A stretch of 64,000 nt of DNA from Vampirovibrionales bacterium (GTDB lineage: Bacteria > Cyanobacteriota > Vampirovibrionia > Vampirovibrionales > JAJTHC01), in the NCBI GenBank assembly GCA_044346175.1, contig JBIIZQ010000005.1, positions 20,818 through 84,817 of the forward strand. The letters run 5' to 3'. The notes beneath the pieces are model-generated. The model was not told where the DNA came from. It searched no databases and saw only the letters and a list, made by a program, of their open reading frames with translations. The position numbers were made by a program, and so were the translations under genes. Within the stretch, counting starts at the first letter, position 1. Each line of letters begins with the position of its first letter. Positions 1-27,854 of this stretch are shown piece after piece.

Positions 1-1
1 A

Positions 2-1591: not shown

Positions 1592-1648
1592 CAAACACGC
1601 CTACCTTTGTAGAGGGCGGATAAATCTTTCCCTACACTTTTCAATTTG

Positions 1649-1670
1649 TATCTATCTATCTATCTATCTA
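1649..1670. repeat. (TATC/TCTA)n tetranucleotide microsatellite, about 5.5 units
   Basis: tatctatctatctatctatcta is read directly in the intergenic sequence downstream of paralog A. Confidence 0.8.
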
Positions 1671-3309: not shown

Positions 3310-3345
3310 GTTAAATCGTCGTTACAAGGAAGAGAACAACCATGG

Positions 3346-9095: not shown

Positions 9096-10072
9096 TCAGG
9101 GAGGGGGGTAACGGCATGCTGGGGCGGGGTGAACATCTCTCGGGTACGGTAGGGGTATGCTCCCCACTGTGGTTGAAGTGCCGTTTCAGGAGGCAAATGG
9201 GCGTTAAAACAAGCCACTACTTCTTGGAGCGTTACAGTATTCGGGGACGGTAAAGCGTACTGTGCCGAGAGGGTGGTCATATTGGGAAGTGTTTTAGTCA
9301 CGGCATGCGTGAGTGCGTCGCAGAGGTCGGTCTCGTAAAGAAAATGGAAGGACTGGCGTATGCCATCAGTCAATTGGATGGGTTGTCTTTCAGTGAGAGG
9401 CGTTAATGCCGCTTGACGCAGTATCGGTAATACCTTACGACGTGTGTCACTTACGCCATAGGTGTCGTAAAGTTTCAGGGTTAAAGTTGGTAGGGTGTAT
9501 ACCTCGGTATAGTATTGTAGTAGGGCTTCAAAAGCCTGTTTGGTAGCGGCGTAAAGATTCACAGGTGCATAAGGGGCATCTTCAAAATGTTGCCATACTG
9601 TTCCCATGTTGAGTACCCACCCAAACCTATCTGTTGTGGTATGTGCTTGCTGATGGGTACGTTGCTGATGTACATAACGTCCCCAAGCCTCTAAGCACAC
9701 GGTACCAAACAGGATATTGCTTTCTATCAGGGTTGCCAACTGATGAGGTTGATGTTCGCCTAAAAAGCAAGTGGCAAGATGTAGGAATCCTTCAGGGCGA
9801 TATTGATTGAGGTTCTCAAGTAAAATTTCAAACCACATGGCATTATCCACAGGTAAGGATACTAAAGTAGCACCCTGTGTTTGAAGGGCTTGTGCTTGAC
9901 TAGTACTTACATCACGCACCACACATACCACATGCCACCCTAAATTTAACCAGTGTGGTACCACACACTGCCCCACAAACCCCGTTGCTCCCGTGACCCA
10001 CACCGTGGGTTTGGGATGAGGTGTATTGAGGGCTTTTTCTGAAGAAGGGTTTGTCAGCTTAGAGAACATCAT
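9005..10072 (-). CDS. NAD-dependent epimerase/dehydratase (SDR family)
   Basis: N-terminal Rossmann motif VWVTGATGFVGQ, and Y(ATK) in YAATKQAFE consistent with the SDR catalytic YxxxK. Confidence 0.7.
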   Translation of the reverse strand: MMFSKLTNPSSEKALNTPHPKPTVWVTGATGFVGQCVVPHWLNLGWHVVCVVRDVSTSQAQALQTQGATLVSLPVDNAMWFEILLENLNQYRPEGFLHLATCFLGEHQPHQLATLIESNILFGTVCLEAWGRYVHQQRTHQQAHTTTDRFGWVLNMGTVWQHFEDAPYAPVNLYAATKQAFEALLQYYTEVYTLPTLTLKLYDTYGVSDTRRKVLPILRQAALTPLTERQPIQLTDGIRQSFHFLYETDLCDALTHAVTKTLPNMTTLSAQYALPSPNTVTLQEVVACFNAHLPPETALQPQWGAYPYRTREMFTPPQHAVTPLPDWQARYTLTMGVKMLLGLPSEVSAPQGDPT

Positions 10073-10485
10073 AAGTGTAAGGCATGATTAAGGAGAGAGT
10101 GAGGTTTGGGTAGAGGGCTTAGGTGTTGAGCCATGTTACAGGAAAGGTTGCAGGCGATGTGACAGGCAATGACATGGGCAGAGGGTTTAGGCTAATGGAG
10201 GTTAAAGCCTTCCTCCATAGTGTACCCTAAAGCCCTTAGAGAATATAGTGCTATCTGGATGGAAAGCCCGTATAGCGTATCTTATTCTACCGATATTTTT
10301 AGTAGGAGGCGATTTGTAATCATCCCGTTTTTTAAGTATCCCCATGGGTTAGGGGTGACAGACACTTACGCTTTGTATATAAAACAAACAGTTACTAGGG
10401 TGGATGAATCTTTTTATGGTATTTTTGTAAAAATATTGTAATAAGTATAAATCTTACGCTCCCAAAAATGCGACCTATTTGACAC

Positions 10486-12468
10486 ATGTCCTACGGTTTT
10501 TTCTCATTGTTACTTAAAATAGTATTCGTGGCTTTGTTAGTAATCCCCTTGGTGGGCATCATCGCAATGATGCTTGTTTGTATAGAATTACTCGTTTTAG
10601 GGTATCTAACAGTTACACTGATTAGAATATGCTCTTGGATTAAGCGCGCAGGGGGAAAACTGGTTTCCGACATTTGGTCACTTTGGGTAGATATTCATCC
10701 TTTCAAGAAAGAATTTTGGAATGGGCATTCCTTTAGCTTGCTATTCCATACATGCCATGATGTCCTGATGAAAAACTGGCTTTCGGATAACGCCCTAGTA
10801 GACATACTGGAAATGTTGGCTGACCGTTTTGCCTCTTTCTTTATGCGTATTATGACTATCGTATGGGATATGCTGAAAGTTGGTTTACTCGTACTGATGC
10901 CTTCTATCATTCTAGTTCTTACAGTGCCAAGCTTTAGAAACAAACCCCAGATAGAGTCGGTTCTTCAAGCGTGTAGCAATAACGCTCTAATACAGGATTT
11001 GTTTTACAAAGCCAAAAAAAACGAAAACGATTCTTCCAAATCCCAAATTGATTTCCAGAAGCTTGCCGAATTTATTAGAAACAAACCCCAGATAGAGTCG
11101 GTTCTTCAAGCGTGTAGCAATAACGCTCTAATACAGGATTTGTTTTACGAAGACAAAAAAAACGAAAACGATTCTTCCAAATCCCAAATTGATTTCCAGA
11201 AGCTTGCCGAATTTATTGGAAAACTTACCGTTCTTTTTGCAGCCTTAACCTTGATATTTAACTACTACAAGCACCGTAATGATGAAGCCAAAAACCTTAT
11301 TAAAGACTGGCTTCATACCTCTGAAGGAAAGCTCATTTGTGATGTGCTTGAAAATGAACTTTCAGTGATTGAACACCCTTTTCATAAACAAGACAAAGAT
11401 AAAACTGACTTCTTAGTAGATTGGAGCTATACAGGGCCTGCAACACTCATTATTCAAAGTAAAACCGATCCAAAGTTTAAGGATTTATCTTTAACGTTTG
11501 CACAGTGGTGGCTAAATGCTTACAACCTGATTGAAAAAGATGACTCCAAAGACCGCTCCTATGCTGATGTTTTAAGCAAAGCCATAAGACCATTTAGCCT
11601 ATGTCTGACACAAAACGAAGCATGCAAGGAACGCAAGGAATGCCAAGAATGCAAAAGCATCACAACATTAAAAGACTTACTAGAGGTTTGTAAAACCATT
11701 GCGGAACAAAAGGGAAACGGCATTTTTATACGTACGATGCAGGGCTATCCCGAACTATTAAAAGGTTTAGAACATGAGGTAAGGGAGCAACATTTCTTTA
11801 ACGACATTCTTTCGCCAGACCTTTTAAATAAAACGCCTGAGCAATTGCTGGTGTCTCCTACGACCCTTATCACCTATACTTATTACTTCTTATCAAGACG
11901 ATATCTATCAGTTATCAATGCTTTTTACAATGCTATTGCGGATAAAAAAGTAAACTTGAGTTATGCAGAAAAGCAACTCATTTTCGCTTTTGATACCTTT
12001 TTTCAAAGCTTACGTAAGGTGGCACTGAGCATCAAACAACGCAACGTGACGTATGACGATGTAGAACCCACCGTATGGTATTGGCTTGACCGTATTGAGT
12101 ATCTCATTGTAGAAGGTAGACTTAAAGACCCTAAATACGAATACTACTCTTTCGTTGCCCATTATATTATAAGAGACTACCCTGAGATTTTTGAACTCCT
12201 TGCACGTCGACATCTTGATTGGCAAATCAGCTGGCGTAAGCCTCGGTATCGAACCTTAAAGCAACAAAAACATCGTGAAGCTTACAATGCTGTGATTAAA
12301 AAGATGATTTCAGACAATGAAAAAGCAATGAAAAAAGCTACAGAAACCCCCTACGAACCTTTAAAATTCTATGAAGACCTCGCCATTGAGCTTTCTGAAC
12401 TCAAACGAATCCAACTCCTCAAAAAGAGTCTTTACGTGAGGATGAAATGCGAAAGCTTAAAGGAGTAG
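10486..12468 (+). CDS. Hypothetical membrane protein with a bilobed N-terminal hydrophobic domain, an internal 47-aa tandem duplication and a K/E/N-rich C-terminus (effector-like)
   Basis: The gene is distinctly AT-rich compared with its flanks. There is an N-terminal ~45-aa bilobed hydrophobic segment and a second TM segment. No recognisable catalytic domain. Confidence 0.5.
   Translation: MSYGFFSLLLKIVFVALLVIPLVGIIAMMLVCIELLVLGYLTVTLIRICSWIKRAGGKLVSDIWSLWVDIHPFKKEFWNGHSFSLLFHTCHDVLMKNWLSDNALVDILEMLADRFASFFMRIMTIVWDMLKVGLLVLMPSIILVLTVPSFRNKPQIESVLQACSNNALIQDLFYKAKKNENDSSKSQIDFQKLAEFIRNKPQIESVLQACSNNALIQDLFYEDKKNENDSSKSQIDFQKLAEFIGKLTVLFAALTLIFNYYKHRNDEAKNLIKDWLHTSEGKLICDVLENELSVIEHPFHKQDKDKTDFLVDWSYTGPATLIIQSKTDPKFKDLSLTFAQWWLNAYNLIEKDDSKDRSYADVLSKAIRPFSLCLTQNEACKERKECQECKSITTLKDLLEVCKTIAEQKGNGIFIRTMQGYPELLKGLEHEVREQHFFNDILSPDLLNKTPEQLLVSPTTLITYTYYFLSRRYLSVINAFYNAIADKKVNLSYAEKQLIFAFDTFFQSLRKVALSIKQRNVTYDDVEPTVWYWLDRIEYLIVEGRLKDPKYEYYSFVAHYIIRDYPEIFELLARRHLDWQISWRKPRYRTLKQQKHREAYNAVIKKMISDNEKAMKKATETPYEPLKFYEDLAIELSELKRIQLLKKSLYVRMKCESLKE
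10936..11217 (+). repeat. Intragenic near-perfect tandem duplication (2 x 141 bp, 47 aa each)
   Basis: agaaacaaaccccagatagagtcggttcttcaagcgtgtagcaataacgctctaatacaggatttgtttta... is repeated head-to-tail with only 3-4 substitutions (K->E, A->D). Confidence 0.9.
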
Positions 12469-12603
12469 GATAGTCGAGGGGCTTGCGTCTGTGGTAGCAT
12501 AGGGCGTAAGTGTTCCGTCATGCGTTATAACTTAAGGCATGAACCCCAAAATGTTTCACCTGCTGTGTAGCCCCTACCATAGTTTTTAAAGTGTCGACCC
12601 CCT

Positions 12604-14478
12604 ATGATGATGACTCTGTCTCTTTCTTCGATTAAGCGATTCTTGATTGGTGAACCCCTCCGTACCAAGTTTGCCAAACATCAAAAAGTCAATGTCCCCA
12701 TGGGGCTGGCCATTTTTGCTGCCGATGCACTGTCATCCTCGGCATACGCTACGGATGAAGTTCTCATTGCCTTAAACGTGATGTTGCCTGGCGTGGCTGC
12801 TTCAGCCGTGATTCAGCAACTTGCCATGCCTGTGGCGGTTGCGATTGTATGGCTTATTTTATTAGTCGTTATTTCGTATCAGCAGGTCATTCGTGCGTAC
12901 CCTTCAGGTGGGGGGTCTTATATTGTTTCAAGAAGCAATTTAGGCGAAGGACTGAGCCTGGTAGCGGGTTCTGCACTACTCATTGATTATGTTCTGACCG
13001 TATCGGTGAGTATTTGTGCTGGTGTTGGTGCGATGGTCTCTGCGGGATGGATACCCCATGAACTCCAAGTCCCTGTTGCGGTTGGGGCGGATGTTCTCAT
13101 TTTAGGGATGAACCTCCGAGGGCTTAAAGAATCTGCTTCTGTGTTTTTGCTACCCTCTTTTTTGTTTATCGGTGCCATGGCGTTCCTGCTCATTTCTGCA
13201 CTGTATCAAATGTTCACAGGCTCTTTGCATATTTTGCATCCTGAACCCGTTGCCCAACAAGTGGCAGGGTCGGGGCTTGGATTGTTCCTCGCTTGTAAGC
13301 TGTTTTTTAATGGCTTCTCACACGGTTGTGCAGGCTTAACAGGGATTGAGGCTGTTTCAAATGGTGTGAATGCCTTCAAAGAACCCGCCTCTAAAAACGC
13401 TAACGTAACGATGATGTGGATGGGTACCATTCTGGCGGCTATCTTTATTGGCATGACGTATTTTGCAGTCAAAATTGGCGTAGTACCTATAGAAGGTAAA
13501 AACGTGGTTTCCCAGTTGGCAACCGCTGTGTTTGTAGGACAGCCCATCTTGTTCAACATTGTGATGTTTGCAGTCATGCTGATTCTGATTCTAGCGGCTA
13601 ACACTGCGTACTCTGACTTCCCAAGGGTGTCTTCATTCTTGGCAGACGATGGCTTTTTACCGCGCCAACTCATGAGTATCGGCGACCGCCTAGTGTTTAG
13701 TAATGGGATTATTATGCTGGGCATCATTTCGATGCTCCTCATTATTTTCTTCAAAGGCGACACCCATGCCTTGATACCCCTTTACTCGGTGGGTGTATTT
13801 ATTTGTTTTACCCTCACACAATTGGGCTTAGTGCGGCACCACCTGCGGGAAAGAGAAAAAGGATGGCAGCTGGGGATGTTAATCAATGGCATGGGGGCTG
13901 TGATTACAGGGATGGTGCTTGTTGTGTTGGCGGTTGAAAAGTTCCTTGAGGGTGCTTGGCTTGTATTTATCGCCATACCGTTGCTTATTTATATGTTTAA
14001 GTGTATTAAAAATCATTACAAATCAGTGGGGAGACAGCTTGCACTCCCTGAGGCAACCCATTGTCCTGTGAAGGTTGAACACACCGTCTTGGTGCTAGTG
14101 GCTTCTTTGAACCGTGGAACGATTGCCGCCTTGGAATATGCAAAGTCTATCAGTGAAAGAGTTGAAGCGGTTCACGTTGAGCTTAAACCTGAAGCCACAC
14201 AACGTTTACGCCATATCTGGGATGATTGGGGATGCGGACTCCCTTTAACCATTCTTAAATCGCCTTACCGTACTCTGGTGAATCCTTTGATGGATTATAT
14301 CGATGAGGTAGAAGGACGATATGACCATGACCTTGTAACGATTGTGATTCCTGAGTTTGTCACCAAAAAAATGTGGCATAACATTCTTCATAACCAGACC
14401 GCTTTTTACTTGAAGGCTATCCTATCCCGTAAAAAAGGGAAAGTGGTTACGACCGTAAGGTATCATCTTGAAGAGTAA
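12604..14478 (+). CDS. kimA: KimA-family (APC superfamily) K+ transporter with a C-terminal regulatory domain
   Basis: The N-terminus (IKRFLIGEPLRT...ADALSSSAYATDEVL...AYPSGGGSYIVSRSNLGEGLSLVAGSALLIDYVLTVSVSICAG) closely follows the B. subtilis KimA/YdaO N-terminal pattern. 12 TM segments are followed by a ~150-aa cytoplasmic domain. Confidence 0.65.
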   Translation: MMMTLSLSSIKRFLIGEPLRTKFAKHQKVNVPMGLAIFAADALSSSAYATDEVLIALNVMLPGVAASAVIQQLAMPVAVAIVWLILLVVISYQQVIRAYPSGGGSYIVSRSNLGEGLSLVAGSALLIDYVLTVSVSICAGVGAMVSAGWIPHELQVPVAVGADVLILGMNLRGLKESASVFLLPSFLFIGAMAFLLISALYQMFTGSLHILHPEPVAQQVAGSGLGLFLACKLFFNGFSHGCAGLTGIEAVSNGVNAFKEPASKNANVTMMWMGTILAAIFIGMTYFAVKIGVVPIEGKNVVSQLATAVFVGQPILFNIVMFAVMLILILAANTAYSDFPRVSSFLADDGFLPRQLMSIGDRLVFSNGIIMLGIISMLLIIFFKGDTHALIPLYSVGVFICFTLTQLGLVRHHLREREKGWQLGMLINGMGAVITGMVLVVLAVEKFLEGAWLVFIAIPLLIYMFKCIKNHYKSVGRQLALPEATHCPVKVEHTVLVLVASLNRGTIAALEYAKSISERVEAVHVELKPEATQRLRHIWDDWGCGLPLTILKSPYRTLVNPLMDYIDEVEGRYDHDLVTIVIPEFVTKKMWHNILHNQTAFYLKAILSRKKGKVVTTVRYHLEE

Positions 14479-14515
14479 GTCTTCTGAAAGTCAGTGCCAT
14501 TTTTTATCTCATACG

Positions 14516-14585
14516 GTCATACCGACGAAAGTCGGTATCCAGCTCCTTATGCCTCTTGGATTCCGACCTGCGTCGGAATGACGAC
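14516..14585. repeat. MITE/REP-like palindromic element, copy 1 (two hairpins)
   Basis: Hairpin 1 is gtcATACCGACgaaaGTCGGTATcc. Hairpin 2 is ggATTCCGACctgcGTCGGAATgacgac. The same termini occur in inverted orientation at 41965..42085. Confidence 0.8.
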
Positions 14586-14696
14586 TTAGGTTGTAGTGAA
14601 TATCTCCTACTTTAAGGCATGTACCCTATTGGAGCATTGCTTTCAAAAAGTCTCATCAAAAATTAAGCATCCAAGTAGTATCTATTGTTTGGACAT

Positions 14697-14706
14697 ATGG
14701 TATAAT
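14697..14706 (+). promoter_or_regulatory. Candidate extended -10 promoter (TGgTATAAT) upstream of ORF 14839
   Basis: atatggtataatac is read directly in the AT-rich intergenic region, ~130 nt upstream of the 14839 start. Confidence 0.3.
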
Positions 14707-14838
14707 ACATGAAGATGTTCAAATGATTTAATCGTTTTAAAGTGTGTTTTGTTAAAAACGTCTTCCCTAAACTATCTTCTTGACTACCTTCATAAAAGTC
14801 CTTAAGAAGATACATACTCAACAGACCTTTTAAACCTC

Positions 14839-15717
14839 GTGTTTTCTAATACGCTCCTGTCTTCAGCCTGCATACCTTGCCAAACACCTAAGGTGACGGT
14901 ACCTCGTACGGTAAGCCCTACGGCTTTACAGCGAGGTAAGAGTCTTAATCGAGCAGATACCTTTAGCCAAGTATTGGCACAGCACTTGCCCCAGATGCGT
15001 CCTCAGGAGGTACGCCCTTCCGCCTTGACCTTGCCATGGCAAGAGGTTTCTCAAGAAACCCCTAAACAATCGCAACATCATGCCTTTAAAGGTTCATTGC
15101 ATCCCGCTTCTCATTTGCAATCTATTGAGAGTGAAAAAAATCAGTTTGCATTACAAACCACACGAGGGGATGTCTTTCAACGACGTTTTGGACAAAATCA
15201 AGAAACCCTCACAACACAAGTTCCCACGGCAATTAAACCCAACTTTATAGCGGGGCTGACCCATCAAAGTGGCTATGCACAACCACAGCCCCTTGCACTT
15301 AAAGAGACGGCTAAAGTGGGTTCAGATGTTTTAAAACAACAATGGACGCAGCAGGGTAAGCAGGTGATGGGTCGGTTACGGATGTTAGGAGGACAGCTCA
15401 AAGAGCAAACGCTTAATACCGTTGTGCAGTCTTGGCAAACGGTGACTTCTTCGACAGCTGGCAAAGCCCTTTTACTTCCCTTGCAGCCTAGTATTGCGGC
15501 ACTTTCAGTGGGCGGTACCGATATGAAGACCTCTTTAAAATCGACAAGTCTTACCACCACCCTAACGCCTTCAACCTTAGCGTATCAACCCAGTGCTGAT
15601 AATATGGGCGTTCATCTACAGCCTGGGCATCACCTCATTCAGCCTGAAACCGTTCATTACGCACAATCTTACGGACAATACCACGCCGTTGGGCATAAGC
15701 TCAATATTGTAGGGTAA
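14839..15717 (+). CDS. Hypothetical Q/T/S-rich protein
   Basis: An ORF with no recognisable motifs, located between the kimA-like gene and cdaA. Confidence 0.35.
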   Translation: MFSNTLLSSACIPCQTPKVTVPRTVSPTALQRGKSLNRADTFSQVLAQHLPQMRPQEVRPSALTLPWQEVSQETPKQSQHHAFKGSLHPASHLQSIESEKNQFALQTTRGDVFQRRFGQNQETLTTQVPTAIKPNFIAGLTHQSGYAQPQPLALKETAKVGSDVLKQQWTQQGKQVMGRLRMLGGQLKEQTLNTVVQSWQTVTSSTAGKALLLPLQPSIAALSVGGTDMKTSLKSTSLTTTLTPSTLAYQPSADNMGVHLQPGHHLIQPETVHYAQSYGQYHAVGHKLNIVG

Positions 15718-15792
15718 ATAAAAAGGTCACATACTTTACCGAGAGCGTAAGGTGTGTACTACAAAAATAAAACAAAGATGTGATATGATAAG

Positions 15793-16767
15793 GTGCCTTG
15801 CTCCTTATCATGTTCTCTTGATGCTTTAAGTCCTAAAGAGTCCTTTATGCCTTTTGATGCCATGCTTGACCAGCCCCCAAGTCCTCACCTGCCAGGGGTT
15901 CATCTCTCTGAAACATGGATTGACCAGCTCATCCATGTCGTACTGAGTTATGTTGAGATTGGCTCCCTTGTACTTGTGTTTTTGTGGGTTTATTGGCGAT
16001 TCATTCGAGGCAACCAAGCCGAACCTCTACTGAGGGGGCTTTTACTCATTTTATTGGGGGTTATGGGGATATGGCTCCTTGCTAGGGCATTCCATTTTAC
16101 CCTTTGGGAGAGTCTTATCAGCTTAGGTACCCAACTTTTTTTAGTGGGTCTGATGATGATTTTTCAACCCGAGTTGAGGCGTATTCTGCTTTATATTGGG
16201 CGAACCTCTTGGCTACAAAAAGTGTTACAAAGTTTAGGTCTCGGGCTGGAGCAGGACCGAGAAATCGCCACGCTCAACGCTGAAGAAATGACACGTTTTT
16301 TACAACGTATGGGCGAAACGGTAAGGTATTTAAGTAAACGACAAATGGGTGCTTTAATGGTGATTGAGCCTATGAGCTTGAACCGTCATGAACTGGCCTA
16401 TCAAGATGAATTTTTAGAACAGGGGGTACTCCTCCATGCACGTCTTTCGGCTGAACTGCTCATTACCTTGTTTCACCCCAATACGCCTTTGCACGATGGT
16501 GCATGCCTCATTCGGGCAAGAGGTTCTAAAGTTGTGGTGGCAGGGGCATTACTCCCATTAACAGAAGACCCCCATTTAAGCTGGCAATACGGAACCCGAC
16601 ACCGTGCCGCTATAGGTCTTAGTGAAACCTCACCCTGTGCTTGTGTTGTTGTGAGTGAAGAAACAGGGATGGTTAGTTTTGTGCATGAAGGTAAAATCCA
16701 GCGCACCAAAACGATTGAAGAACTCAAACAGTACCTCAAACAATACCTTACCTCTTCAGGGACTTAG
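15793..16767 (+). CDS. cdaA: Diadenylate cyclase CdaA (c-di-AMP synthase), membrane-anchored
   Basis: Three N-terminal TM helices followed by a DAC domain with HDGACLI (DGA motif) and GTRHRAAIGLSETSPCACVVVSEETGMVS (RHR motif). The true start is probably the internal Met MPFDAML. Confidence 0.8.
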   Translation: MPCSLSCSLDALSPKESFMPFDAMLDQPPSPHLPGVHLSETWIDQLIHVVLSYVEIGSLVLVFLWVYWRFIRGNQAEPLLRGLLLILLGVMGIWLLARAFHFTLWESLISLGTQLFLVGLMMIFQPELRRILLYIGRTSWLQKVLQSLGLGLEQDREIATLNAEEMTRFLQRMGETVRYLSKRQMGALMVIEPMSLNRHELAYQDEFLEQGVLLHARLSAELLITLFHPNTPLHDGACLIRARGSKVVVAGALLPLTEDPHLSWQYGTRHRAAIGLSETSPCACVVVSEETGMVSFVHEGKIQRTKTIEELKQYLKQYLTSSGT

Positions 16768-16768
16768 C

Positions 16769-18820
16769 CTAAGCCGTGACACGCTGAGGTGCTGAAGGGG
16801 TCATGCTCGGTAAATGGCTCGAAAAATGGGGTGGCTCTACCGTTAATACGCCCAGTTTTTCTCGTTGGCGACGTTTTTCTAACGAATTCGTCACCCAAAT
16901 ACCTAATTGTGGTTCAAGGAAAGCAAGTAAGGCGACAGAAATGGCAGCACTCGTTAGGGTGACACGATTTTGTGTATGTTTTACACGGGCGACTAAGTCG
17001 GGCAAGTGCTTGATTTGAGACTCACTTAACCGTAAGGCATGTTGCATCATGGGGCGTGTAATTTCTTGGGCATCTCGGCGTACACTGTAATCAGCCGTTT
17101 TAAACAGGAGTTGATGGCCTACTTGCTTGCTTTGCTCAAAAGTCATTAAGCCATCCCGTACCAAGGTGTGCATAAGCTGTTTGTTTGCAAGACGGCTCAA
17201 ACCCTGGCGTAGCCACTGGGTTCCCCAAGTGAGGGTAGGGAATCCTAATATATTGTCACGCAGTAACGTTTCTCTAAAGTCGGCATCGTTTCTACTTTCC
17301 ATGAGACGAATGCCACATAAAGCCCCATACGTGAACTCCATTTGACGTAAGGTTGTAAAAGGAAAAGTACGCTCAAAGGACAGAAACTCTTTCATGCCCT
17401 TGGCAAAATCTAAACCCAAACGTCCCGCTTTCTGAGTCACAAAGTGTCGACCCGCTACAGCACCCAAAAAGCCGAAAAAGCCTGCACTTACAAGAGCAGG
17501 TGTCAAGTTGCCTTGTTTCAAACTTTCACGGATGTAGGGAAACCATTTCACGTGAGTTTTAGGGGTTGGCGTATTAGATGCTTGGACTGGTGCTTCTTTG
17601 CTTGCTTGGGGTGTCTGTCCAAAACGAGTTTGAAAGGTAGGCACTTGAGAAGAAGCGTAAGAGGCGTTGGTCTTTTGTGTTGACACTGCAAAAGGTTGGG
17701 TTGCACCCATAAAGGGGGTTGCCACGACCATGGCGGGTACTTTACTCAGCAGTCCAGAGGACGTATTGGAGATGGGGTGAGTACTAGCGGGGGTTGGATG
17801 ACTTAGGGGGGTATTTTTACCAAGGGATTTTGCTAATTTATCGTAGTGTTCCGAGATGGCACGGGTAGCAGGGTTGGTATCAGCCTGTGGCCCATAGCGT
17901 TTTACCATCATTTGACGTATCCAGTGAGGAATCATCAAAGAAATGCTAAAAGCAGCCAATGTACCAAGCCCCTGCCAAGGCTGATGTTTGAGTGTGGTTT
18001 CCGCCATATGTGCCAGTTTACTATCCCACGCATGCCCCTCATGGCGTGCCATGCGGGTAAGGTCATGCAAAATATTGGGTAGCGTGGTTTCAACAGGGTG
18101 TCCCGTGTGTGGGTGTTTTAAATGAATATCCAAACTAGGGAGGCGTAAAGCAGCCGCAAGGTTTTGTGCTTCATGCGTGTAGGGGTCTTGAGTTTTGCCT
18201 AAAAGGCTATCAAAGGCATGCCGAAAATGTCCGCCTGTTTGTTGTGCAGTGGTGGTTTCCCACTTGACCAGTTTATCCACAGCTTTTTGCAATGATGTTT
18301 GACCTAAAAGCCTTTCCTGTGAGGTCTCTTGGGTGATGGTGGAGGCTTGCGGGGACTGCACAAGCTTTTGTAATGTATTGAAAAAATCTTGTTGATGACG
18401 ACTTTTCTCGGCAATGGTTCTATACACCTCAAGACTATCAGCATCAATATTGTGTTGTATTAAGCCACCATGACGTTTGTCCAGATGTTTTCCTACAACG
18501 TAAGTTGCAAGTAGACCAGGTAAAAAGGTATCAGTAAAATCTGCCGCTGTATCTCGGATGAACATTTCCTCGCCAGCTTGTTTGTTTTTCTCACCCGTGA
18601 TGTCAAAGGTACGGTATTGTTGCTGTACAAACCTTGGTACGGTGTAACCAAAGGTCTGTTCCACAGCGTAACGTACGCCTTCTCCTCGGTTATATAAGCT
18701 ATCGGCAACCCCGTTCATCAGTTGCGTTGCAACAGAAGCACCCCCTGAAAAGCGTGCTGTTTGGGGTACACGATGCTTTGTTGGCGTAGGCAATGACAAG
18801 GCAGAAGAGGAAACGAGCAT
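16769..18820 (-). CDS. Large hypothetical protein (683 aa)
   Basis: A long ORF with a central S/T/P/Q-rich low-complexity region. No recognised motifs. Confidence 0.4.
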   Translation of the reverse strand: MLVSSSALSLPTPTKHRVPQTARFSGGASVATQLMNGVADSLYNRGEGVRYAVEQTFGYTVPRFVQQQYRTFDITGEKNKQAGEEMFIRDTAADFTDTFLPGLLATYVVGKHLDKRHGGLIQHNIDADSLEVYRTIAEKSRHQQDFFNTLQKLVQSPQASTITQETSQERLLGQTSLQKAVDKLVKWETTTAQQTGGHFRHAFDSLLGKTQDPYTHEAQNLAAALRLPSLDIHLKHPHTGHPVETTLPNILHDLTRMARHEGHAWDSKLAHMAETTLKHQPWQGLGTLAAFSISLMIPHWIRQMMVKRYGPQADTNPATRAISEHYDKLAKSLGKNTPLSHPTPASTHPISNTSSGLLSKVPAMVVATPFMGATQPFAVSTQKTNASYASSQVPTFQTRFGQTPQASKEAPVQASNTPTPKTHVKWFPYIRESLKQGNLTPALVSAGFFGFLGAVAGRHFVTQKAGRLGLDFAKGMKEFLSFERTFPFTTLRQMEFTYGALCGIRLMESRNDADFRETLLRDNILGFPTLTWGTQWLRQGLSRLANKQLMHTLVRDGLMTFEQSKQVGHQLLFKTADYSVRRDAQEITRPMMQHALRLSESQIKHLPDLVARVKHTQNRVTLTSAAISVALLAFLEPQLGIWVTNSLEKRRQREKLGVLTVEPPHFSSHLPSMTPSAPQRVTA

Positions 18821-19974
18821 AAAGCGTAAGGCAACTTCAATAACAGGGAAAACAAGGAGGAAACGGTGACCTAAGTAAGCCTTAAAGACTCAAGGACCAA
18901 TGGAGTCTCCCATGTAGAAGCAGCCATGCAATAATGCGTATGTTTTAAAACCTGTGTTGTGACAATCAAGAGAGTCGTAAGGGGATGGTGTTTTAATGAA
19001 ACCACCATACATAAACCCACTGTTAAACATTTTACTTTCATGGAGAACCAGTGTTTGCATTAAAACTTAAAGCTGAATGGGGTTTAAGGTTAAAGATTTC
19101 GTGCAGTAACGAGAGATTGATGCACGTCGTGATACGATAAAACACCCTCAACAAAAAGCAGTGCGTCCAAAACCCAAAACACATGCTAGGGTTCAGGGCA
19201 GCATGTGAGTTGAAAGACTCACATTGACTGCGATACACTTATTCAAAAATCCAAAAAAGCAACATGACACAATCTTGTAGCACTCCACGGAGGTTATGAG
19301 GGTCTTGAAACCTCAACATACCACTTCCATGACAGTTGTTGGGTATTAACCTCAACAACCAAGTATCTCTGTGCCTTAAGCAGGATACTTTCGGCATCAC
19401 TTCCCTTTTTGTGAAGTTACTTTAGAGATGGCACTCTAAGAAGAAACCAGGCAGTTTCAAAGGCAACCGCACATACTTTTGAAGGATGCACCTCTACAGG
19501 GCAATGTTATTATGCGTGAAATAAACCCACGATACAAGCCCTTATCTCTCATAAAGAAAGCATGTAACGCAAAGATGTAACATCCTGTGAATGTCGGTCT
19601 GGTGTCGTCCTGTAACGAAATGTTACAATCGGGCTTTTTTGTCAAAAGCAATCTTATTTCAAAGGGTAAGTTTGATGAAACTTTGTTAAAATAACAGGAT
19701 GCTCTTCTACAGTGTTAATAATGTAATAATGTTGCATTAAATGTATCTTTTTCATATACTCTATTTGTATAGAGTACTTGAGATAGATATTTTAAGCTCT
19801 GTTTTAGGCTGATACGTTCTGGTTTCGGTAACTGCCTGAGTGATGATATTCGTTTTAAATGATGTGTGTGTGCTACCCATTTGCTTCATCACAATGTTGA
19901 AACCTAGCCATTCTTTTTTATTCTCTAGATTGTTCACGTATTTTAAAATTGTTTCATAAGGTCTTACAAAGGAT

Positions 19975-21171
19975 ATGATGATGCGTCTCTCTTCTTTAGC
20001 TTCACCTATGGCGTTTAGTGCCACAAACCGCTTAAGTCGTTCTCAGCAAACACCTAACACGCAAGTACAAAGCCGATTTGGCGATGCAGGATGCCCTGTC
20101 TGTATTTCTCGTGCTGCACTGAGTGATACGGTCGAAAAGCTTGTTAAAGGCGATGTTGTGATGCCCTCATCCGTCATGGCGAATGTATTGAAAAACGTAG
20201 ACCCCAGCATCCAACGTCCTGAGCAAGTACAGGCACGTATTCCGCACTTTAAAGCAACACGCTTAGCCCCCATTCGTTCAAGTGATGTACCTGCACTGAT
20301 GCTTACCACCTTAGGGCTTCCTGACCCTTTGAAAAAGGATGTCATTAGAGGCATGAAGCACTATGAAAATGTCACTCAGTATCCTGATGTCCCTGTACAG
20401 GCTGTCGCAGTGCCTCAAGATGAAGCGGTTGCTGCCTTTACAAATCGTAAAGCAGGTACCGATGATGCACACCAGGCTCAAATGTTGGCAAAATGGCTTA
20501 ACCCTGACACTCAAAAAGCCAATACCCACCGGTTTTTTGTAGACCTTGTGCCTGTGCCTTTAAAGCAAACGCTTGAAGCCAAGCAACATGCCGATTTGCC
20601 TCAAACGCTTACCGTGGTTCATCATACCGTGAGTGGTGAGGGTCGTATCAATGGCGAGGTTAAAAAGATTCCCGGTGGTTTGACGACCCTTGGTGTACTT
20701 TCCATGAAAAAAACAGGTCATGACCACAGCCAGTTGTACATATTCCATAACAAAGAACTCCCTGGTATGGAAGGGTTTGGACAGCCTGCCGCAGGGTTGA
20801 TGAATGTGATTGCCATGGTTGCAAACCGTGAAGAAGGCTTCAAACAGGTACAATCTTTATCGGTTCGTGTGCCTAAAGACCAACCTGACCTTAAACACTA
20901 CATCCACAAACTTGCACAAAAAGTAGATACGCCTTTAAAAAAAGAAGTGAAGGATGGCGGAGAAGTCCTAACATTTGAGCATGTTTCAGGGTTTAAAGGA
21001 CACATGGACAAGCTTGAAGAAGCCTACAATGAAATCTATAAGCACCATCAAAAAGACCTTGGTACGAATACGCTTGCGCCTGCTACCTTCCAGTTTTTAC
21101 ATGCCATTCGTCCCTCTCAGTTTCTTTCTAAGGATGCTGCAAATGCCAATGCTTTTGCATTAAAGCCTTAA
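19975..21171 (+). CDS. Hypothetical protein (398 aa)
   Basis: A long ORF following a 1.15-kb AT-rich non-coding gap. No recognised motifs. Confidence 0.4.
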   Translation: MMMRLSSLASPMAFSATNRLSRSQQTPNTQVQSRFGDAGCPVCISRAALSDTVEKLVKGDVVMPSSVMANVLKNVDPSIQRPEQVQARIPHFKATRLAPIRSSDVPALMLTTLGLPDPLKKDVIRGMKHYENVTQYPDVPVQAVAVPQDEAVAAFTNRKAGTDDAHQAQMLAKWLNPDTQKANTHRFFVDLVPVPLKQTLEAKQHADLPQTLTVVHHTVSGEGRINGEVKKIPGGLTTLGVLSMKKTGHDHSQLYIFHNKELPGMEGFGQPAAGLMNVIAMVANREEGFKQVQSLSVRVPKDQPDLKHYIHKLAQKVDTPLKKEVKDGGEVLTFEHVSGFKGHMDKLEEAYNEIYKHHQKDLGTNTLAPATFQFLHAIRPSQFLSKDAANANAFALKP

Positions 21172-21252
21172 GGTAACGCTTGGGGTTTCGTCACGAGTAT
21201 TTCAAAATCGTGGCGAAACCTCAAGCCCTCTGTATGTCCCCTGTTTTCATTT

Positions 21253-22803
21253 GTGCCATTGATTCTCTGTCTGCCTGTCTGTGGGAAAGCTTTTATGACA
21301 CTTGCTGTCACCTCTCATATGCCCTCCTATGCCACAGTACAAGCCCCACGAGGTGCATTTCCTCAGCGGGTTGATAATCTTAATAGCACACCCCTTGCCC
21401 TTGATAGTTTCTTTTCACGTACCGACTCTGCCCTTTACGCCTACCCTAAACAAAATAATCCTATCGCTCCTCACTCTGATGTATTTACCTCTGTCACGTC
21501 AATAACAAGCGATGTAACCAAAGTGCCTGTTTGGTCGCAGACACTTTACGGAAGTGGTGGTATCAATGCAGCAGGACGTACTATGTCTGAAGCCTCTCGG
21601 AGAGATGCCACACGTCATAATCCCTTCAGGCTAGAGTCCCATCCACCACAAAAGCCTTCACCGTCTTCTTCTCCAGATACCCTAGAAGAACAAAAAAATT
21701 ACGTACCCGTTACCGCACTTCAAGTTTCGGCACCCCTCTTGGAACTGCGTACTCAAAGTGAGCATGCCACCTCCAAGCGAGAGAATACAAAAACGCTTTT
21801 CCATTTTGATTTACCTGTGAGTGGCATTCTGGTTGCTTACCTAACACGTTATTATCATTTGAATCATCATCCAACACTCAACACGTGTCGCCAAGTGGGT
21901 CAATTGCTTGCAAAAGGACAGAAGCTCCAAAAACTTGTCCCGAAAACATTACAAGAAGCGGATGCATCTCTCAGTTCTCCCATACGCTACGACCTCCTTG
22001 CTTCTCCTGAAGCACTCTATGATAAAAACAAAAGTATCAGGCGTACACTCCTTCACCAAGCAGATACCTTATTCAAGGACCGTCCTGCACTGCTCCAAGC
22101 GTATAAAGAACTCATTGCTAGCCATGCAAACCAAATTGCAGCTTCGAGTAAAGAGGAACAACAAAGACAAGCACGCAAGGGGATTCATCAGTTACCTGGT
22201 AAACTTTTAACGCATGAGCTTCCCCAAACGTGGGAACCCAATAAAAGCCTTAAGCTAGCCTATACGCAAGCGGCTGAAAGTTTAGAACATAACCGAAAAG
22301 CAACTTGGCAAACACTCCATGAAGCCTTAGAAAAAACCCTTCAAGTACAAGCGGAACATACTCACTATGCAAAGGCATGGCATGCTTTAAATAAAGAGCG
22401 GCAAGGGATGCTTAACCTCATGGAGAGCGATGCTCCCCAAGCACAGGGCTTTAAACTAGGGTTCAGTCCAAAGCTTTACCCTTTTAAGCAGTATGCTAAA
22501 GAGCTTGGTTTATCACCTGATACTTACAGTAAACAAGCTGCTTGGCGACCGATGGTAGCCCTTCATCAGTTTTTAGCAGATAGCCATAAGAGTATGGCGC
22601 AAAAGCTGCATCAAGCAGGGCAAATTCAACACTTGGGTACTCGTTGGGCAGGCTTTGCCGAGACGTTTCGTCTTTCACAGAAGCGTGCCGTTCAGTTTGC
22701 GAATGTGGAGTCTTGGATTATGGGCGTTGCTACAGTGGGCATGATTACCCTAGAAAGACGGGTTCATCAGGCGAGTGAACGTCGTGACCAAGCACAAGCC
22801 TAA
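21253..22803 (+). CDS. Hypothetical protein (516 aa)
   Basis: A long ORF with no recognised motifs, co-directional with 19975..21171. Confidence 0.4.
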   Translation: MPLILCLPVCGKAFMTLAVTSHMPSYATVQAPRGAFPQRVDNLNSTPLALDSFFSRTDSALYAYPKQNNPIAPHSDVFTSVTSITSDVTKVPVWSQTLYGSGGINAAGRTMSEASRRDATRHNPFRLESHPPQKPSPSSSPDTLEEQKNYVPVTALQVSAPLLELRTQSEHATSKRENTKTLFHFDLPVSGILVAYLTRYYHLNHHPTLNTCRQVGQLLAKGQKLQKLVPKTLQEADASLSSPIRYDLLASPEALYDKNKSIRRTLLHQADTLFKDRPALLQAYKELIASHANQIAASSKEEQQRQARKGIHQLPGKLLTHELPQTWEPNKSLKLAYTQAAESLEHNRKATWQTLHEALEKTLQVQAEHTHYAKAWHALNKERQGMLNLMESDAPQAQGFKLGFSPKLYPFKQYAKELGLSPDTYSKQAAWRPMVALHQFLADSHKSMAQKLHQAGQIQHLGTRWAGFAETFRLSQKRAVQFANVESWIMGVATVGMITLERRVHQASERRDQAQA

Positions 22804-24374
22804 AAAGCCATGACAGGTGCCATAATGGCATCCTTCATGCCATGGATGATTTTTTTGTCCTTCGGGCATCCCGTTGCTAACACACCCGCTAGGGTTGTTT
22901 TTTCTTCAACAGGATGGACAATATAATAGGGGCAGAGTCTTACTCGTGCTTCAAATGGATAAGCTTGTAGTGTGTCTGTATTCAGGGCATGCCAAGGTAC
23001 AACCTGCGTGTTGTGATAAGGCTGTAAAATATGAGGGGTTTGGTGAAAATCATCCAGAGCCTTCTGAAGGGCTTCAGCCCAACCCTGACTTGCGTGGTCA
23101 TGACCTATCACAACGCCTCTTGAACCCCAAGCTTGAGGCGAAAATCCAGAGGGTTTTATTACCCATTGCCGTGCTTTTTGACTTGCCGTTTTAAGCAAGT
23201 GCCAAGAGGCTAAGGGTTTACCCTGATAGACGAGTGTAGGCGTATACGCTGCAGAGGGTGGTAAAGGCGTGGGGTCAAGCACCCAAGTGGGTGGGATGAT
23301 AGCATCTAAAAGCGTGATAGCACAAGACGATTGTAGTAAGGGGTACTTGGTACGCATTTTTTGCCAAGAAAGCTCCCAAAAAGGCCGTAGTGCTGGATGA
23401 TGCCACAAAGCCGCCATCATTTTTTCCTCTAGGTGAGGTTTAATAGGTGGGCTACACACCAGCCATTGCTTTTTAATCGCATGAACGATTAACTCGGCGT
23501 TAGGTAACGAGGTGACATCAAAGCATTCAAAAAAACGATACAGGACATCTACACGGTGTACTTTGCCCTGAAAATCAAAATATAGCCCATCAGCAAGGGG
23601 AAAGAGGTCTTTAGGGTGCAGGGCTATTACGCCTGATTGCTCAAACCCGCCTAGGGCTTGCGTAATGAAGTACTCCCATTCTGGTGCATAATCCTTCGCT
23701 TCATCAGAAATGCACACCACAATATGAGGAAAAGGCTGTCCAAACGTTGTAATAGCTTGGCGACGTTTTTCGGAAAGCCCTGTTTGAACCAAAGCTCGAA
23801 AAGCCTGAAGCCATGTGGTGGCTAAATCCTTAGAGGCCGGTGGTAGATAGGGGTTACCATCCATGTCATGGTAATAGGACTGAAGTGCCTGCGTAAAACC
23901 CAACCCGCCAGGAATGGCATCCACTTCACAAAGGGTTAAGGTGTCCCCCTCACCCCAAAGTAAATCAGGACGAATGACCAAGGGGATGTGGCTTTTTTGT
24001 CGTTTGTGGCGTGCAAGGTCAATCACCATTTGTGGTTTTCCTTGGTCAAGCCACTGAGAAACCCAAAGTGGTACCTGCTCAGGGTGGGTTTGTTTCCAGC
24101 TTTGTTCGTAAAGGGTATCCAATGCGGTCAGCCACCAATGTAGTGCGTCTCCTATGGCTGCTAGCTTTGAAGTAATGGCTTCAGGGAGTGGTAAAGGATA
24201 GGCTGCTAACTTCCAAGAGGGTGTATGGGCTACGACCTCTTGGAAGTTAGCCTGCCCCTGATACAACCCCTCCCAAGTAGGGAGTGCTGTCGGTAAGGGG
24301 ACGGGTCGTATGATTGGCTCATCACTAAGCGTATGACTCAAAGCGGTGCTGTAAGAAGCAGAGGAAAGTGTCAT
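22800..24374 (-). CDS. Hypothetical protein (524 aa), possibly an ATP-grasp-like or circularly permuted ligase fold (speculative)
   Basis: A long ORF. The C-terminal half has weak resemblance to ATP-grasp-like families. No firm motif. Confidence 0.35.
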   Translation of the reverse strand: MTLSSASYSTALSHTLSDEPIIRPVPLPTALPTWEGLYQGQANFQEVVAHTPSWKLAAYPLPLPEAITSKLAAIGDALHWWLTALDTLYEQSWKQTHPEQVPLWVSQWLDQGKPQMVIDLARHKRQKSHIPLVIRPDLLWGEGDTLTLCEVDAIPGGLGFTQALQSYYHDMDGNPYLPPASKDLATTWLQAFRALVQTGLSEKRRQAITTFGQPFPHIVVCISDEAKDYAPEWEYFITQALGGFEQSGVIALHPKDLFPLADGLYFDFQGKVHRVDVLYRFFECFDVTSLPNAELIVHAIKKQWLVCSPPIKPHLEEKMMAALWHHPALRPFWELSWQKMRTKYPLLQSSCAITLLDAIIPPTWVLDPTPLPPSAAYTPTLVYQGKPLASWHLLKTASQKARQWVIKPSGFSPQAWGSRGVVIGHDHASQGWAEALQKALDDFHQTPHILQPYHNTQVVPWHALNTDTLQAYPFEARVRLCPYYIVHPVEEKTTLAGVLATGCPKDKKIIHGMKDAIMAPVMAF

Positions 24375-24400
24375 GGGTAAAATGCACCGTGTTACGCAGC

Positions 24401-25621
24401 TTAGGAAGATACGAGGCTGGCATCTTGAGCAACAGCAAGTGCCGCCGTAACGTAGGCCTCTAATTTCGGTAACACGTTTGCCATGACTTCAGCACGAGTC
24501 CCTTTTACGCTACAACCAGCTGCCATGGTGTGTCCACCACCTTGGTAGTAATGTTCTGCAAAGTGTGAAACATCGATGCGTGGTGTGAGGCTTCTAAAGC
24601 TTATTTTGGTAAGGTTAGGCGTATTCTCTTTAAAAAAGGCACACGCTTGCACCCCTTTTAATTGACGAAGCACATCAATCCCACCTTCAGTATGTTCTTC
24701 ACACGCATTTAAACTTTCTAAATCTTCGGGTGAAACCCAGCTATGGGCAATCGCCCCTTGGCATATCAATTCAGTACGCTCAATGACCCGCCCCATGAGT
24801 TTAAGTTGGCACAAAGGGGTTTCTTCGTAAATATCACGATACAATAAATGCCCCTCGGCACCCGCTTCGGTTAAACGCTTTGCTAATTCAAACACCTCAG
24901 GGGTACTATTGGGGTATTTAAAATTGCCTGTGTCGGTCATTAAGGCGGCGTAAAGATTCACTGCAATTTCTCGAGTAAAGGGTACCTTCATGGCATCAAT
25001 TAAATGTGCCACGACCTGCCCAGTGGCACTGAGTTCAACATCTACCAGATTCAGCGTTCCAAAACGCTCGTTACTTACATGATGGTCTAAGTTGACTCGA
25101 ATAGGTGCTTTGTCAAAAATCTGTCCATTAAACCCTAAACGTGCTTTGGAGCCACAATCAAAGCTTAAGCTCATGTCATAAGTATTCAAGTAGTGTGATT
25201 GATGCAACTCAGATTGCAATACGACATCAATCCCAGGTAGTCTGTGGTATATATCGGGCTTTTTGCCTTCCATTGCCACATGCAATACCTCAATATGAGG
25301 GTAATGCGTGATTAACGCACTTCTTAATGCCAGCATAGACCCCAGCGTATCCCCATCAGGATTGACATGCACCGTCATGAATACTGTACGTGCCTTTCCA
25401 AGCAAGTCAGCCACCTGCTGATAATCTGCCAAAGTAGGTGTAGGGTGCAAGGAATGGGAAGATGAATGGGAGTGGGGGTGCGTTATCATGCGAGTGAGTG
25501 AGAGAGAAGGATGCGAGCGTAAAAGAACATTCGCACAGTGTGACAAAAAAGAATGGACCCTAATGGTTAAGCCTATACACGAATAAAAACAGGGTGCCAA
25601 GATAAAGTGTGAGTTCGACAC
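24401..25621 (-). CDS. DHH/DHHA1 phosphoesterase (NrnA-like nanoRNase/pAp phosphatase; candidate c-di-AMP/pApA phosphodiesterase)
   Basis: DHH motifs HVNPDGDTLGS and NLDHHVSN, and the DHHA1 GGGH motif (YYQGGGHTMAAG). The N-terminal ~60 aa (His/Ser-rich) is probably not translated. Confidence 0.75.
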   Translation of the reverse strand: MSNSHFILAPCFYSCIGLTIRVHSFLSHCANVLLRSHPSLSLTRMITHPHSHSSSHSLHPTPTLADYQQVADLLGKARTVFMTVHVNPDGDTLGSMLALRSALITHYPHIEVLHVAMEGKKPDIYHRLPGIDVVLQSELHQSHYLNTYDMSLSFDCGSKARLGFNGQIFDKAPIRVNLDHHVSNERFGTLNLVDVELSATGQVVAHLIDAMKVPFTREIAVNLYAALMTDTGNFKYPNSTPEVFELAKRLTEAGAEGHLLYRDIYEETPLCQLKLMGRVIERTELICQGAIAHSWVSPEDLESLNACEEHTEGGIDVLRQLKGVQACAFFKENTPNLTKISFRSLTPRIDVSHFAEHYYQGGGHTMAAGCSVKGTRAEVMANVLPKLEAYVTAALAVAQDASLVSS

Positions 25622-25763
25622 TATATAATATCAATATAGTATCAAGCCATGCCCTCAAACCACACTTTGTGAATATTTTGTATCATAAAGCATTCACAGG
25701 CTTTAGTGTACTGTAAACATAGCCTAGAATATAGCCTTTTACAGGAGGAGTGTTAGGACTTAA

Positions 25764-27854
25764 TCACTCAATACTACCTACGGCATTGACCTGAATATCT
25801 GGAATTAACTCCGAGTAAGACAGCACGGAAATCATGGGTAAGTGGCGGTCAAGGAGCTGATAGAGAGGAAGTCGAATGCGAGGGGAACACAGAATGACAG
25901 GAACACGGTCATACTGCTGTTGCACGGCTTGAAGCGTTTGGGCAGTGACTTCAACCAGTTGTTGGACTTGTGCTGGATTAAGTAAAAACATGGTACCTAG
26001 TTCAGTACGCTGACAGGAATCATCCAGTGTGCGTTCCCAATCGTTGGAGAGTGTAATGGCGGTAATACTCTTGTTTTGGTCTGCTTGCATGACACAAATT
26101 TGTCGTCCCAAAGCCGAGCGGATGCGTTCGGAGAGGACATCAGGTTCTTTGCTGAAACGTGCATAGTCGCTCAGACGCTCAAAGATAAACTGCACATCCT
26201 TGATAGAGACCCGCTCACGGATAAGATTGACAAAGATTTTACGTAAATCGTTGGGTGTAAGCATTTGAGGTACAAGCTCTTGGACGAGAGAAGCGTCATG
26301 CTGGCGTACAAGCTCCATCAGCTTGAGTACATCCATTTTGGTCATGACTTCATCGACGTACTTAATGGTGATTTCCTGCAAGTGGGTAATCACAACATCG
26401 GTGGCTTCCACAGCGTGGGCTTGAATTTCAGGCGGAATCTGTTCAGGTTCCAGCCAAAAAGCAGGGGCATTAAATGAGGGGTCAATGTCTTGAACCACGT
26501 CTGCTGGAGGCTCCTGTCCCGTAGACTGGTAAATAGGTGCCAGAATCATATAACGCCCAGGATACACATTCCCAGAACCTACAGGGTTTCCTCGAATTGA
26601 AATAAGATATTCAAACTGTCCTATGGACATACTATCCAAAATACGCACATTGGGCAGAATAAAACCAAGTTCATCCGTAAGGCGGTTACGTAGCCCCGCA
26701 ATTTTACCTAAAAGTTGGCCATTCTGTTCGGGGTCAGCGATTTGGAGCAAGTTCATACCCACTTGAACACTCACAGGGTCAACACCAAGCTTTTGATACA
26801 TACGGTTGGGGTCAACCATTTGGTTCATTTCTTCTTTTACGCCCTCCAGTTGTGCCATTTGTTCGGTCATGTCTTTATTCAGAAACACACTAACCCCAAG
26901 CACAATAAGCCCTATTGCCAAAGGGAGGAAAACATACCAAGGTAATCCTGTAATGGGTGCACTGAGTGCAATAAGAAGCATGAACAAGCCTGAGAAAATC
27001 AAGCTAAAGGGTTTTAATTGAAGGGTTTGTAAAAGGTCTTTTGCCAAACTATCTGTTTGGGCGGTGGAACGTGTCATGGTAATACCAGCGGACACCGACA
27101 TCATTAAGGCAGATACTTGTTGGGTTAAACCATCCCCGATGGTCAAAATGGAGTATTTATTGATAGCCTCTTCAAAGGGCATTTGCTTAATGGCAATCCC
27201 AATGGCTAATCCTCCAATTAAGTTAATCAGGGTAATAAGAATCCCAGCAATGGCATCCCCTTTTACGAACTTCATGGCACCATCCATGGCACCATAAAGG
27301 GCGGATTCTCGTTGTAATTCTTCACGACGACGCTGGGCTTCATCAGGACTGATGAGACCTGCGTTAAAGTCGCCGTCAATCACCATCTGTTTTCCAGGCA
27401 TAGCGTCCAATGCAAAACGAGCCCCGACTTCTGCCACACGCTCTGACCCTTTTGTGATGACCATGAAGTTAACAATAATGATGATGATGAAAATAATCAT
27501 CCCCACCAATAAATCGCCCCCTGTGACAAACTTCCCGAAGGCGATAATCATTTCTCCTGCTTCCCCGTGGGCAAGAATGGCTCGGGTGGTTGCAATCCCA
27601 AGGGCAAGACGAATCATTGTACCCACCAAAATGACAGAAGGGAAAGTCGCCATTTCAACTGGGTTTTTGACGAAAAGCGACATCATCAATAAGAGAATCC
27701 CAAGGGCGATGTTGATACAAATAACCACGTCAATCAGCCACTCGGGTAACGGCATGAGGATGATAAGAATCAAGCCCAAAATACCGAAAACCAGTGCAAA
27801 TTCACTGGGTTGCGGGAGGGTAAACCCCATGGGATTATCAGAAGCCATCATCAT
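25764..27854 (-). CDS. flhA: Flagellar/T3SS export apparatus protein FlhA (SctV family)
   Basis: Full-length alignment to FlhA, including FGKFVTGGDLLVGMIIFIIIIIVNFMVITKGSERVAEVGARFALDAMPGKQMVIDGDFNAGLI and GAMDGAMKFVKGDAIAG. Confidence 0.85.
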   Translation of the reverse strand: MMMASDNPMGFTLPQPSEFALVFGILGLILIILMPLPEWLIDVVICINIALGILLLMMSLFVKNPVEMATFPSVILVGTMIRLALGIATTRAILAHGEAGEMIIAFGKFVTGGDLLVGMIIFIIIIIVNFMVITKGSERVAEVGARFALDAMPGKQMVIDGDFNAGLISPDEAQRRREELQRESALYGAMDGAMKFVKGDAIAGILITLINLIGGLAIGIAIKQMPFEEAINKYSILTIGDGLTQQVSALMMSVSAGITMTRSTAQTDSLAKDLLQTLQLKPFSLIFSGLFMLLIALSAPITGLPWYVFLPLAIGLIVLGVSVFLNKDMTEQMAQLEGVKEEMNQMVDPNRMYQKLGVDPVSVQVGMNLLQIADPEQNGQLLGKIAGLRNRLTDELGFILPNVRILDSMSIGQFEYLISIRGNPVGSGNVYPGRYMILAPIYQSTGQEPPADVVQDIDPSFNAPAFWLEPEQIPPEIQAHAVEATDVVITHLQEITIKYVDEVMTKMDVLKLMELVRQHDASLVQELVPQMLTPNDLRKIFVNLIRERVSIKDVQFIFERLSDYARFSKEPDVLSERIRSALGRQICVMQADQNKSITAITLSNDWERTLDDSCQRTELGTMFLLNPAQVQQLVEVTAQTLQAVQQQYDRVPVILCSPRIRLPLYQLLDRHLPMISVLSYSELIPDIQVNAVGSIE

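Follow-up and report, generated by a model that had tools for sequence, protein, structure and literature searches.

The window analysed here is a 64,000 nt stretch of contig JBIIZQ010000005.1 (assembly GCA_044346175.1; G+C content about 46%). Within 13 kb it carries three genes of the cyclic di-AMP (c-di-AMP) pathway: kimA, for a potassium importer, cdaA, for a diadenylate cyclase, and a gene for a stand-alone DHH/DHHA1 phosphoesterase. Between kimA and cdaA lie a palindromic repeat and an open reading frame (ORF) of 292 codons, orf292, and cdaA is followed by a convergent gene, orf683. An earlier note on this DNA had taken the three genes for a compact K+/c-di-AMP homeostasis module with a non-canonical partner protein. 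The ORFs it named are present where it placed them, and a Pfam profile search confirmed all of the expected domains (AA_permease_2, DAC, DHH and DHHA1) in the three proteins. Its gene identities, its domains and the membership of one signalling pathway were accurate; its orphan convergent gene, its CdaR replacement, its operon baseline and, on synteny, the module with its partner were not. The three are genuine pathway genes that are probably separate units, their proximity being particular to this genome. The observations behind this reading are direct ones, namely the three family assignments, the conservation of the c-di-AMP pocket of KimA, and the lack of synteny in relatives. Freshwater metagenome contigs encode a protein identical to the window CdaA, and the next-best matches of a database protein search are proteins of Vampirovibrionales metagenome-assembled genomes (MAGs). 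By these homologues the window is assigned to the Vampirovibrionales (Melainabacteria/Vampirovibrionia, phylum Cyanobacteriota), which are non-photosynthetic relatives of cyanobacteria.

The kimA gene (12604–14478, + strand) encodes a 624 aa K+/H+ symporter of the KUP family, KimA type, with a match to Pfam AA_permease_2. It aligns from end to end with KimA of Bacillus subtilis (PDB 6s3k; E = 1.5e-145, residues 8–623 against 3–606, 44.5% identity), a homology that takes in both the APC-fold transmembrane (TM) domain and the C-terminal cytosolic domain. The likeness of the N-termini, also pointed out earlier, is seen in the motif SIKRFLIG, common to both proteins. Functional residues listed by Fuss et al. 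2023 (PMC10284832) were mapped onto the window protein by alignment. All residues of the K+ site (D36, Y43, S125, T230, Y377) are identical to those of B. subtilis, as are the coupling residues D117 and E233 and the transduction residues Y118 and N237. Eight of the c-di-AMP contacts are identical as well (R337, V457, L461, A481, V506, H579, N580, Q581). The pocket differs at S582, which is T (a conservative change, with T also found in KimA of Staphylococcus aureus), and at P479, which is L. Given the full-length homology and the conserved K+ site and pocket, the protein is, by sequence, a true KimA, as the earlier note had it, and its inhibition by c-di-AMP is a reasonable expectation. The likeness to B. 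subtilis KimA (PDB 6s3k, 8b70, 8b71) has its limits. Binding of c-di-AMP by the window protein is predicted, and whereas the B. subtilis gene is preceded by a ydaO riboswitch, no such c-di-AMP riboswitch (RF00379) was found upstream of the window kimA, or anywhere in the 10–26 kb part of the window (positions 10000–26000, E ≤ 1).

The ORF at 15793–16767 (+ strand) matches Pfam DAC (E = 1.6e-33), and its best NCBIfam match is TIGR00159 (CdaA), at 174.7 bits slightly below the cut-off of 188.8. The protein has three N-terminal hydrophobic (TM) helices, and the motifs DGA and RHR are at positions 217 and 251. The earlier call of a CdaA-class cyclase thus stands, and only the start is to be revised. 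The longest ORF opens at GTG 15793 and encodes 324 aa, and an exact look-up of that sequence gave no match; the recorded form is the 306 aa one, with database protein P0001 (306 aa) a 100% match. Translation probably starts at ATG 15847, in keeping with the 306 aa length of the database copies and with DNA homology to the orthologue that begins exactly there, making cdaA a 306 aa membrane diadenylate cyclase gene at 15847–16767.

This cyclase is of the same class as that of the Firmicutes cdaA-cdaR-glmM operon, with three TM helices and a DAC domain carrying DGA and RHR. It differs in its setting: neither a YbbR nor a GlmM gene adjoins cdaA in the window or in five relatives, and the gene downstream is the convergent orf683. 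The window has 44 non-overlapping ORFs of 150 aa or more, and a domain scan of 38 of them (four ORFs at 59.8–63.9 kb falling outside it) found no YbbR, GlmM/PGM, lysA, uppS or PgpH domain. The Firmicutes operon, which the earlier note had used as its canonical reference, is however the wrong one for this phylum, in which a lysA-cdaA-uppS operon is reported to be universal among cyanobacteria (Agostoni et al. 2018; PMC5986932). In one Vampirovibrionales relative (locus L006), lysA has been kept directly upstream of cdaA. Because of these two arrangements cdaA-cdaR-glmM is not a proper baseline, and a cdaA without adjoining cdaR and glmM is normal in Cyanobacteriota. The window departs from the cyanobacterial operon too, its cdaA sitting between an ORFan and a convergent lysine-riboswitch gene, with lysA and uppS not among the scanned ORFs.

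The third gene (24401–25621, − strand; 24401–25546 and 381 aa according to gene callers) encodes a stand-alone phosphoesterase of the NrnA/Rv2837c/TmPDE type. Pfam domains (DHH, DHHA1) and a reading of the motifs (DGD, DHH, DTG, GGGH) bear out the description of an enzyme with its DHH and GGGH motifs intact, and additional sensor domains are lacking. Some members of the DHH/DHHA1 NrnA family also hydrolyse pApA or c-di-AMP, and Rv2837c, although deposited as 'Bifunctional oligoribonuclease and PAP phosphatase NrnA', hydrolyses c-di-AMP. It is therefore conceivable, though doubtful, that the window protein is the dedicated c-di-AMP phosphodiesterase of this organism, and that its link to the pathway is real despite the lack of synteny. 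Its best solved relatives in a PDB search are indeed Rv2837c/NrnA and TmPDE (E about 1e-37), with which it shares the two-domain architecture and the catalytic motifs. The family, however, consists primarily of nanoRNases and pAp phosphatases. NrnA is also the best NCBIfam match, but at 90.6 bits, far below the cut-off of 350, and the window protein differs from NrnA, Rv2837c (CnpB) and TmPDE (TM1595) in this low score and in an N-terminal extension of about 45–65 residues. The gene lies 7.6 kb and four genes from cdaA, on the other strand, and its neighbours are not c-di-AMP genes: it lies just downstream of flhA and 26 nt upstream of orf524, an unrelated gene with no family match. Cyanobacteria, moreover, are reported to depend on HD-type PgpH phosphodiesterases for degradation of c-di-AMP (PMC5986932, PMC5897029). 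The most likely role of this NrnA-type enzyme is the removal of pApA, pAp and other very short RNAs; like Rv2837c, it may open c-di-AMP too.

If the three genes form a module, their arrangement might be expected in relatives, and comparison of synteny was a check that the earlier note itself had named. Contigs of the same strain carry the same layout as the window. In the closest other genome (GCA_046080605.1), where CdaA is 87% and KimA 86–92% identical, kimA and cdaA are on different contigs. There, cdaA lies between a tlyA/ftsJ-like gene and a major facilitator superfamily transporter gene, and the alignable part is the cdaA coding sequence only. The kimA gene of that genome has homologues of window genes 38825–41510 (FtsH and others) upstream and unrelated DNA downstream. 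In three more distant loci (L004, L006 and L007; CdaA identities of 63%, 41% and 45%) the neighbours of cdaA differ from one another, and neither kimA nor a DHH gene nor a homologue of orf292 was found near cdaA in the fetched flanks of up to 10 kb. In all, four more distant relatives lack kimA and a DHH gene within such flanks. The compact module therefore fails, its arrangement being found neither in the 87% relative nor in these three loci. Since the adjacency of kimA and cdaA is not seen in relatives, it appears by parsimony to be a derived, lineage-specific juxtaposition. Compared with the available relatives, synteny breaks at every one of the junctions kimA/repeat element/orf292/cdaA/orf683, and local rearrangements would have brought kimA and cdaA together.

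Nor is co-localisation, which had been offered as evidence for the module, shown to exceed chance, and the arrangement is not conserved. By our own estimate, with about 2,200 genes and about 15–20 c-di-AMP-linked classes, one such gene would lie within two genes of cdaA in about 3–4% of cases, and within eight genes in about 12–15%. Single-genome proximity without synteny is weak evidence. Four points weigh against treating the genes as separate units. One specific target gene would adjoin cdaA by chance in only about 0.2% of cases (a nominal value, again our own estimate); kimA, orf292 and cdaA are on the same strand, with no terminator between them in a simple scan; the comparison covers the cdaA loci of five relatives and the kimA locus of just one; and gene content is that of the window alone rather than of the whole genome.

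The shared strand and the lack of a detected terminator make co-transcription of kimA, orf292 and cdaA possible, and with the short gaps (360 and 129 nt) and the conserved c-di-AMP pocket of KimA they are what favours a newly assembled operon. Rearrangement would then have joined the three genes into one transcript, coupling the level of the importer to that of the synthase of its inhibitor, as a young homeostasis module. We regard this as unlikely. Neither the 87% relative nor four other relatives show the arrangement. Within the 360 nt gap are a repeat that can form a hairpin and, upstream of orf292, an AT-rich stretch containing an extended −10-like sequence (TGGTATAAT); this suggests separate promoters.

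The ORF within this putative transcript, orf292 (14839–15717, + strand; 292 aa, 12% Q and 10.6% T), is a strain-specific ORFan. It is probably coding, because its codon usage is gene-like and unlike that of spurious antisense ORFs: the in-frame score is 0.232, against 0.15–0.35 for real genes and −0.16 to −0.23 for antisense ORFs. A search of 5.8 billion proteins returned orf292 itself as the sole match, and Pfam, NCBIfam, PHROGs and PADLOC gave none; paralogy among the six unfamiliar ORFs of the window was also searched for and not found. The protein has neither a TM helix nor a YbbR-like domain. An AlphaFold2 (AF2) single-sequence model is mostly low-confidence or disordered (mean predicted local distance difference test score, pLDDT, 46.8); a single helical stretch spans residues 152–224.

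In the Firmicutes operon CdaR is encoded downstream of cdaA, so that orf292, lying upstream, is no positional replacement for the YbbR-type regulator, as had been proposed, and the lack of any homologue leaves it without the mark of a CdaR substitute. The role of non-canonical partner falls with this, the protein being a mostly disordered singleton with no homologue beside other cdaA genes. A role for orf292 as a regulator of CdaA specific to this lineage, in the functional place of CdaR, is very improbable, for although it is directly upstream on the same strand, with native codon usage and a predicted helix (152–224), it has no homologue anywhere, not even beside the 87%-identical cdaA, it lacks the TM helix and the YbbR-like domain and is mostly disordered, and no conserved small partner ORF was found when one was looked for beside cdaA in relatives. 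The gene would instead be young and strain-specific, sit at a synteny breakpoint and encode a largely disordered protein.

Taken as separate units, the three genes would still meet in one pathway. CdaA, with its three TM helices and DAC domain, would make c-di-AMP at the membrane. The nucleotide would bind the cytosolic domain of KimA in trans and, as it does in B. subtilis, hold this K+/H+ symporter locked in the inward-occluded conformation, and the NrnA-type DHH/DHHA1 enzyme would then remove pApA, pAp and very short RNAs, possibly opening c-di-AMP as well. Such a link between CdaA and KimA, acting in trans, is plausible. The gain for c-di-AMP biology is modest, in that neither a new module nor a new regulator is at hand, but with CdaA, a KimA with a largely conserved pocket, and an NrnA-type enzyme in a non-photosynthetic relative of cyanobacteria, the link between KimA and c-di-AMP likely extends beyond the Firmicutes.

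The spacer between kimA and cdaA contains the Q/T-rich ORF and the element that had been labelled a miniature inverted-repeat transposable element (MITE). This palindromic-repeat (MITE/REP-like) element (14515–14583, 69 bp, no strand assigned) has two 26 nt terminal inverted repeats, recovered by pattern searches (0 matches expected by chance), and both are themselves palindromes of the form CCGAC-N4-GTCGG. A second copy (41967–42084, − strand, 118 bp) differs in internal length. No target-site duplication was identified at the element. A MITE is plausible, and a unit resembling repetitive extragenic palindromes (REP) or bacterial interspersed mosaic elements (BIME) fits equally. DNA homology with the kimA contig of the relative stops at 14479, just upstream of the first copy, and the second copy is at another breakpoint, so that, against the closest genome, synteny breaks at both copies. 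None of the loci fetched from relatives contains the element. A simple inversion via the two copies was considered and rejected, as it fails to yield the gene order of the relative.

The most noteworthy item of the interval, more so than the clustering of c-di-AMP genes, is a family of proteins connected to a lysine riboswitch. Its window member, orf683 (16769–18820, − strand; 683 aa), is helical and membrane-associated. The stop codons of orf683 and cdaA are 1 nt apart (16767–16769), tail to tail, too close together for terminators to fit in between. It had been called an orphan, but close homologues number at least 19, the named sources of which are Vampirovibrionales or 'Cyanobacteria bacterium' MAGs, and a profile search gave at least 216 clusters at 50% identity. 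Family proteins are 570–750 aa long. Searches with orf683 gave no Pfam or PDB match, and its AF2 model (pLDDT 75) no fold match. A metagenome scan with the family alignment gave one locus only.

A lysine riboswitch aptamer (RF00168; 19270–19504, − strand) covers the full model with a score of 74.7 bits (E = 1e-17), above the gathering score, and orf683 (18820–16769) is the next gene after it on the same strand. A lysine riboswitch is directly upstream, on the same strand, in seven of eight loci of the family, i.e., the window and L010 to L015 (59–94 bits in the latter six). In the eighth, L016, from the most divergent clade examined, none was found even at E ≤ 10. Locus L012 shows a clear terminator hairpin with a U-run between aptamer and ATG; the terminator of the window riboswitch itself is weak and ambiguous. 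Known lysine riboswitch regulons include lysC, dap genes, lysP, lysW and others, in a survey that leaves out this phylum and the orf683 family (Mukherjee et al. 2017; PMC5584792). The present case resembles those regulons in having a canonical RF00168 aptamer before a single gene, and in the terminator of L012. It differs in the gene under control: orf683 is not among the known genes of biosynthesis or transport, and has no Pfam domain or fold match.

A sizeable family without a Pfam domain or recognisable fold, tied to a riboswitch with a defined ligand, offers a direct handle on function, namely lysine. We tentatively propose, at somewhat less than an even chance, that orf683 founds an undescribed lysine-responsive family of membrane-associated helical proteins in Vampirovibrionia, which could serve in a new kind of lysine or diaminopimelate uptake or export, or as an envelope factor. 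With respect to cdaA, orf683 would be a separate regulatory unit under the lysine riboswitch. Among the loci examined, cdaA adjoins a gene of this family in the window only. Locus L010 retains the block orf524-orf516-orf398-riboswitch-orf683, with a DDAH-like gene rather than cdaA after it. Since cdaA is linked to lysA in cyanobacteria, the tail-to-tail position might echo a connection between lysine/peptidoglycan and c-di-AMP, but this analogy is pure speculation.

Two minor observations come from the loci compared. In L015 (3001–3070) the called start of protein P0134 overlaps the lysine aptamer (2880–3070), and the long N-terminal extension of P0134 is probably the result of a mis-called start. 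A Vampirovibrionia-like contig, L016, has a cobalamin riboswitch (252–414) upstream of a 446 aa gene without a Pfam domain.

The genes between the lysine riboswitch and the DHH gene, orf398 (+), orf516 (+) and orf524 (−), occupy 19975–24374 and have no match in Pfam, NCBIfam, PHROGs or PADLOC. They form a block with orf683 that is conserved in L010, where they are found by tblastn in the same order (1–3619) with identities of 74%, 41% and 64%, respectively. Upstream of kimA, a K/L/I-rich ORF of 660 aa (10486–12468, + strand) has N-terminal hydrophobic helices and lies in a stretch with a G+C fraction of 0.39, against about 0.46. It may have been acquired recently, given the low G+C, the lack of a family match, and its absence upstream of kimA in the relative. 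The window that holds the c-di-AMP genes also encodes a BcsA-like glycosyltransferase with a PilZ domain (45645–48665, + strand), which is likely a c-di-GMP receptor.

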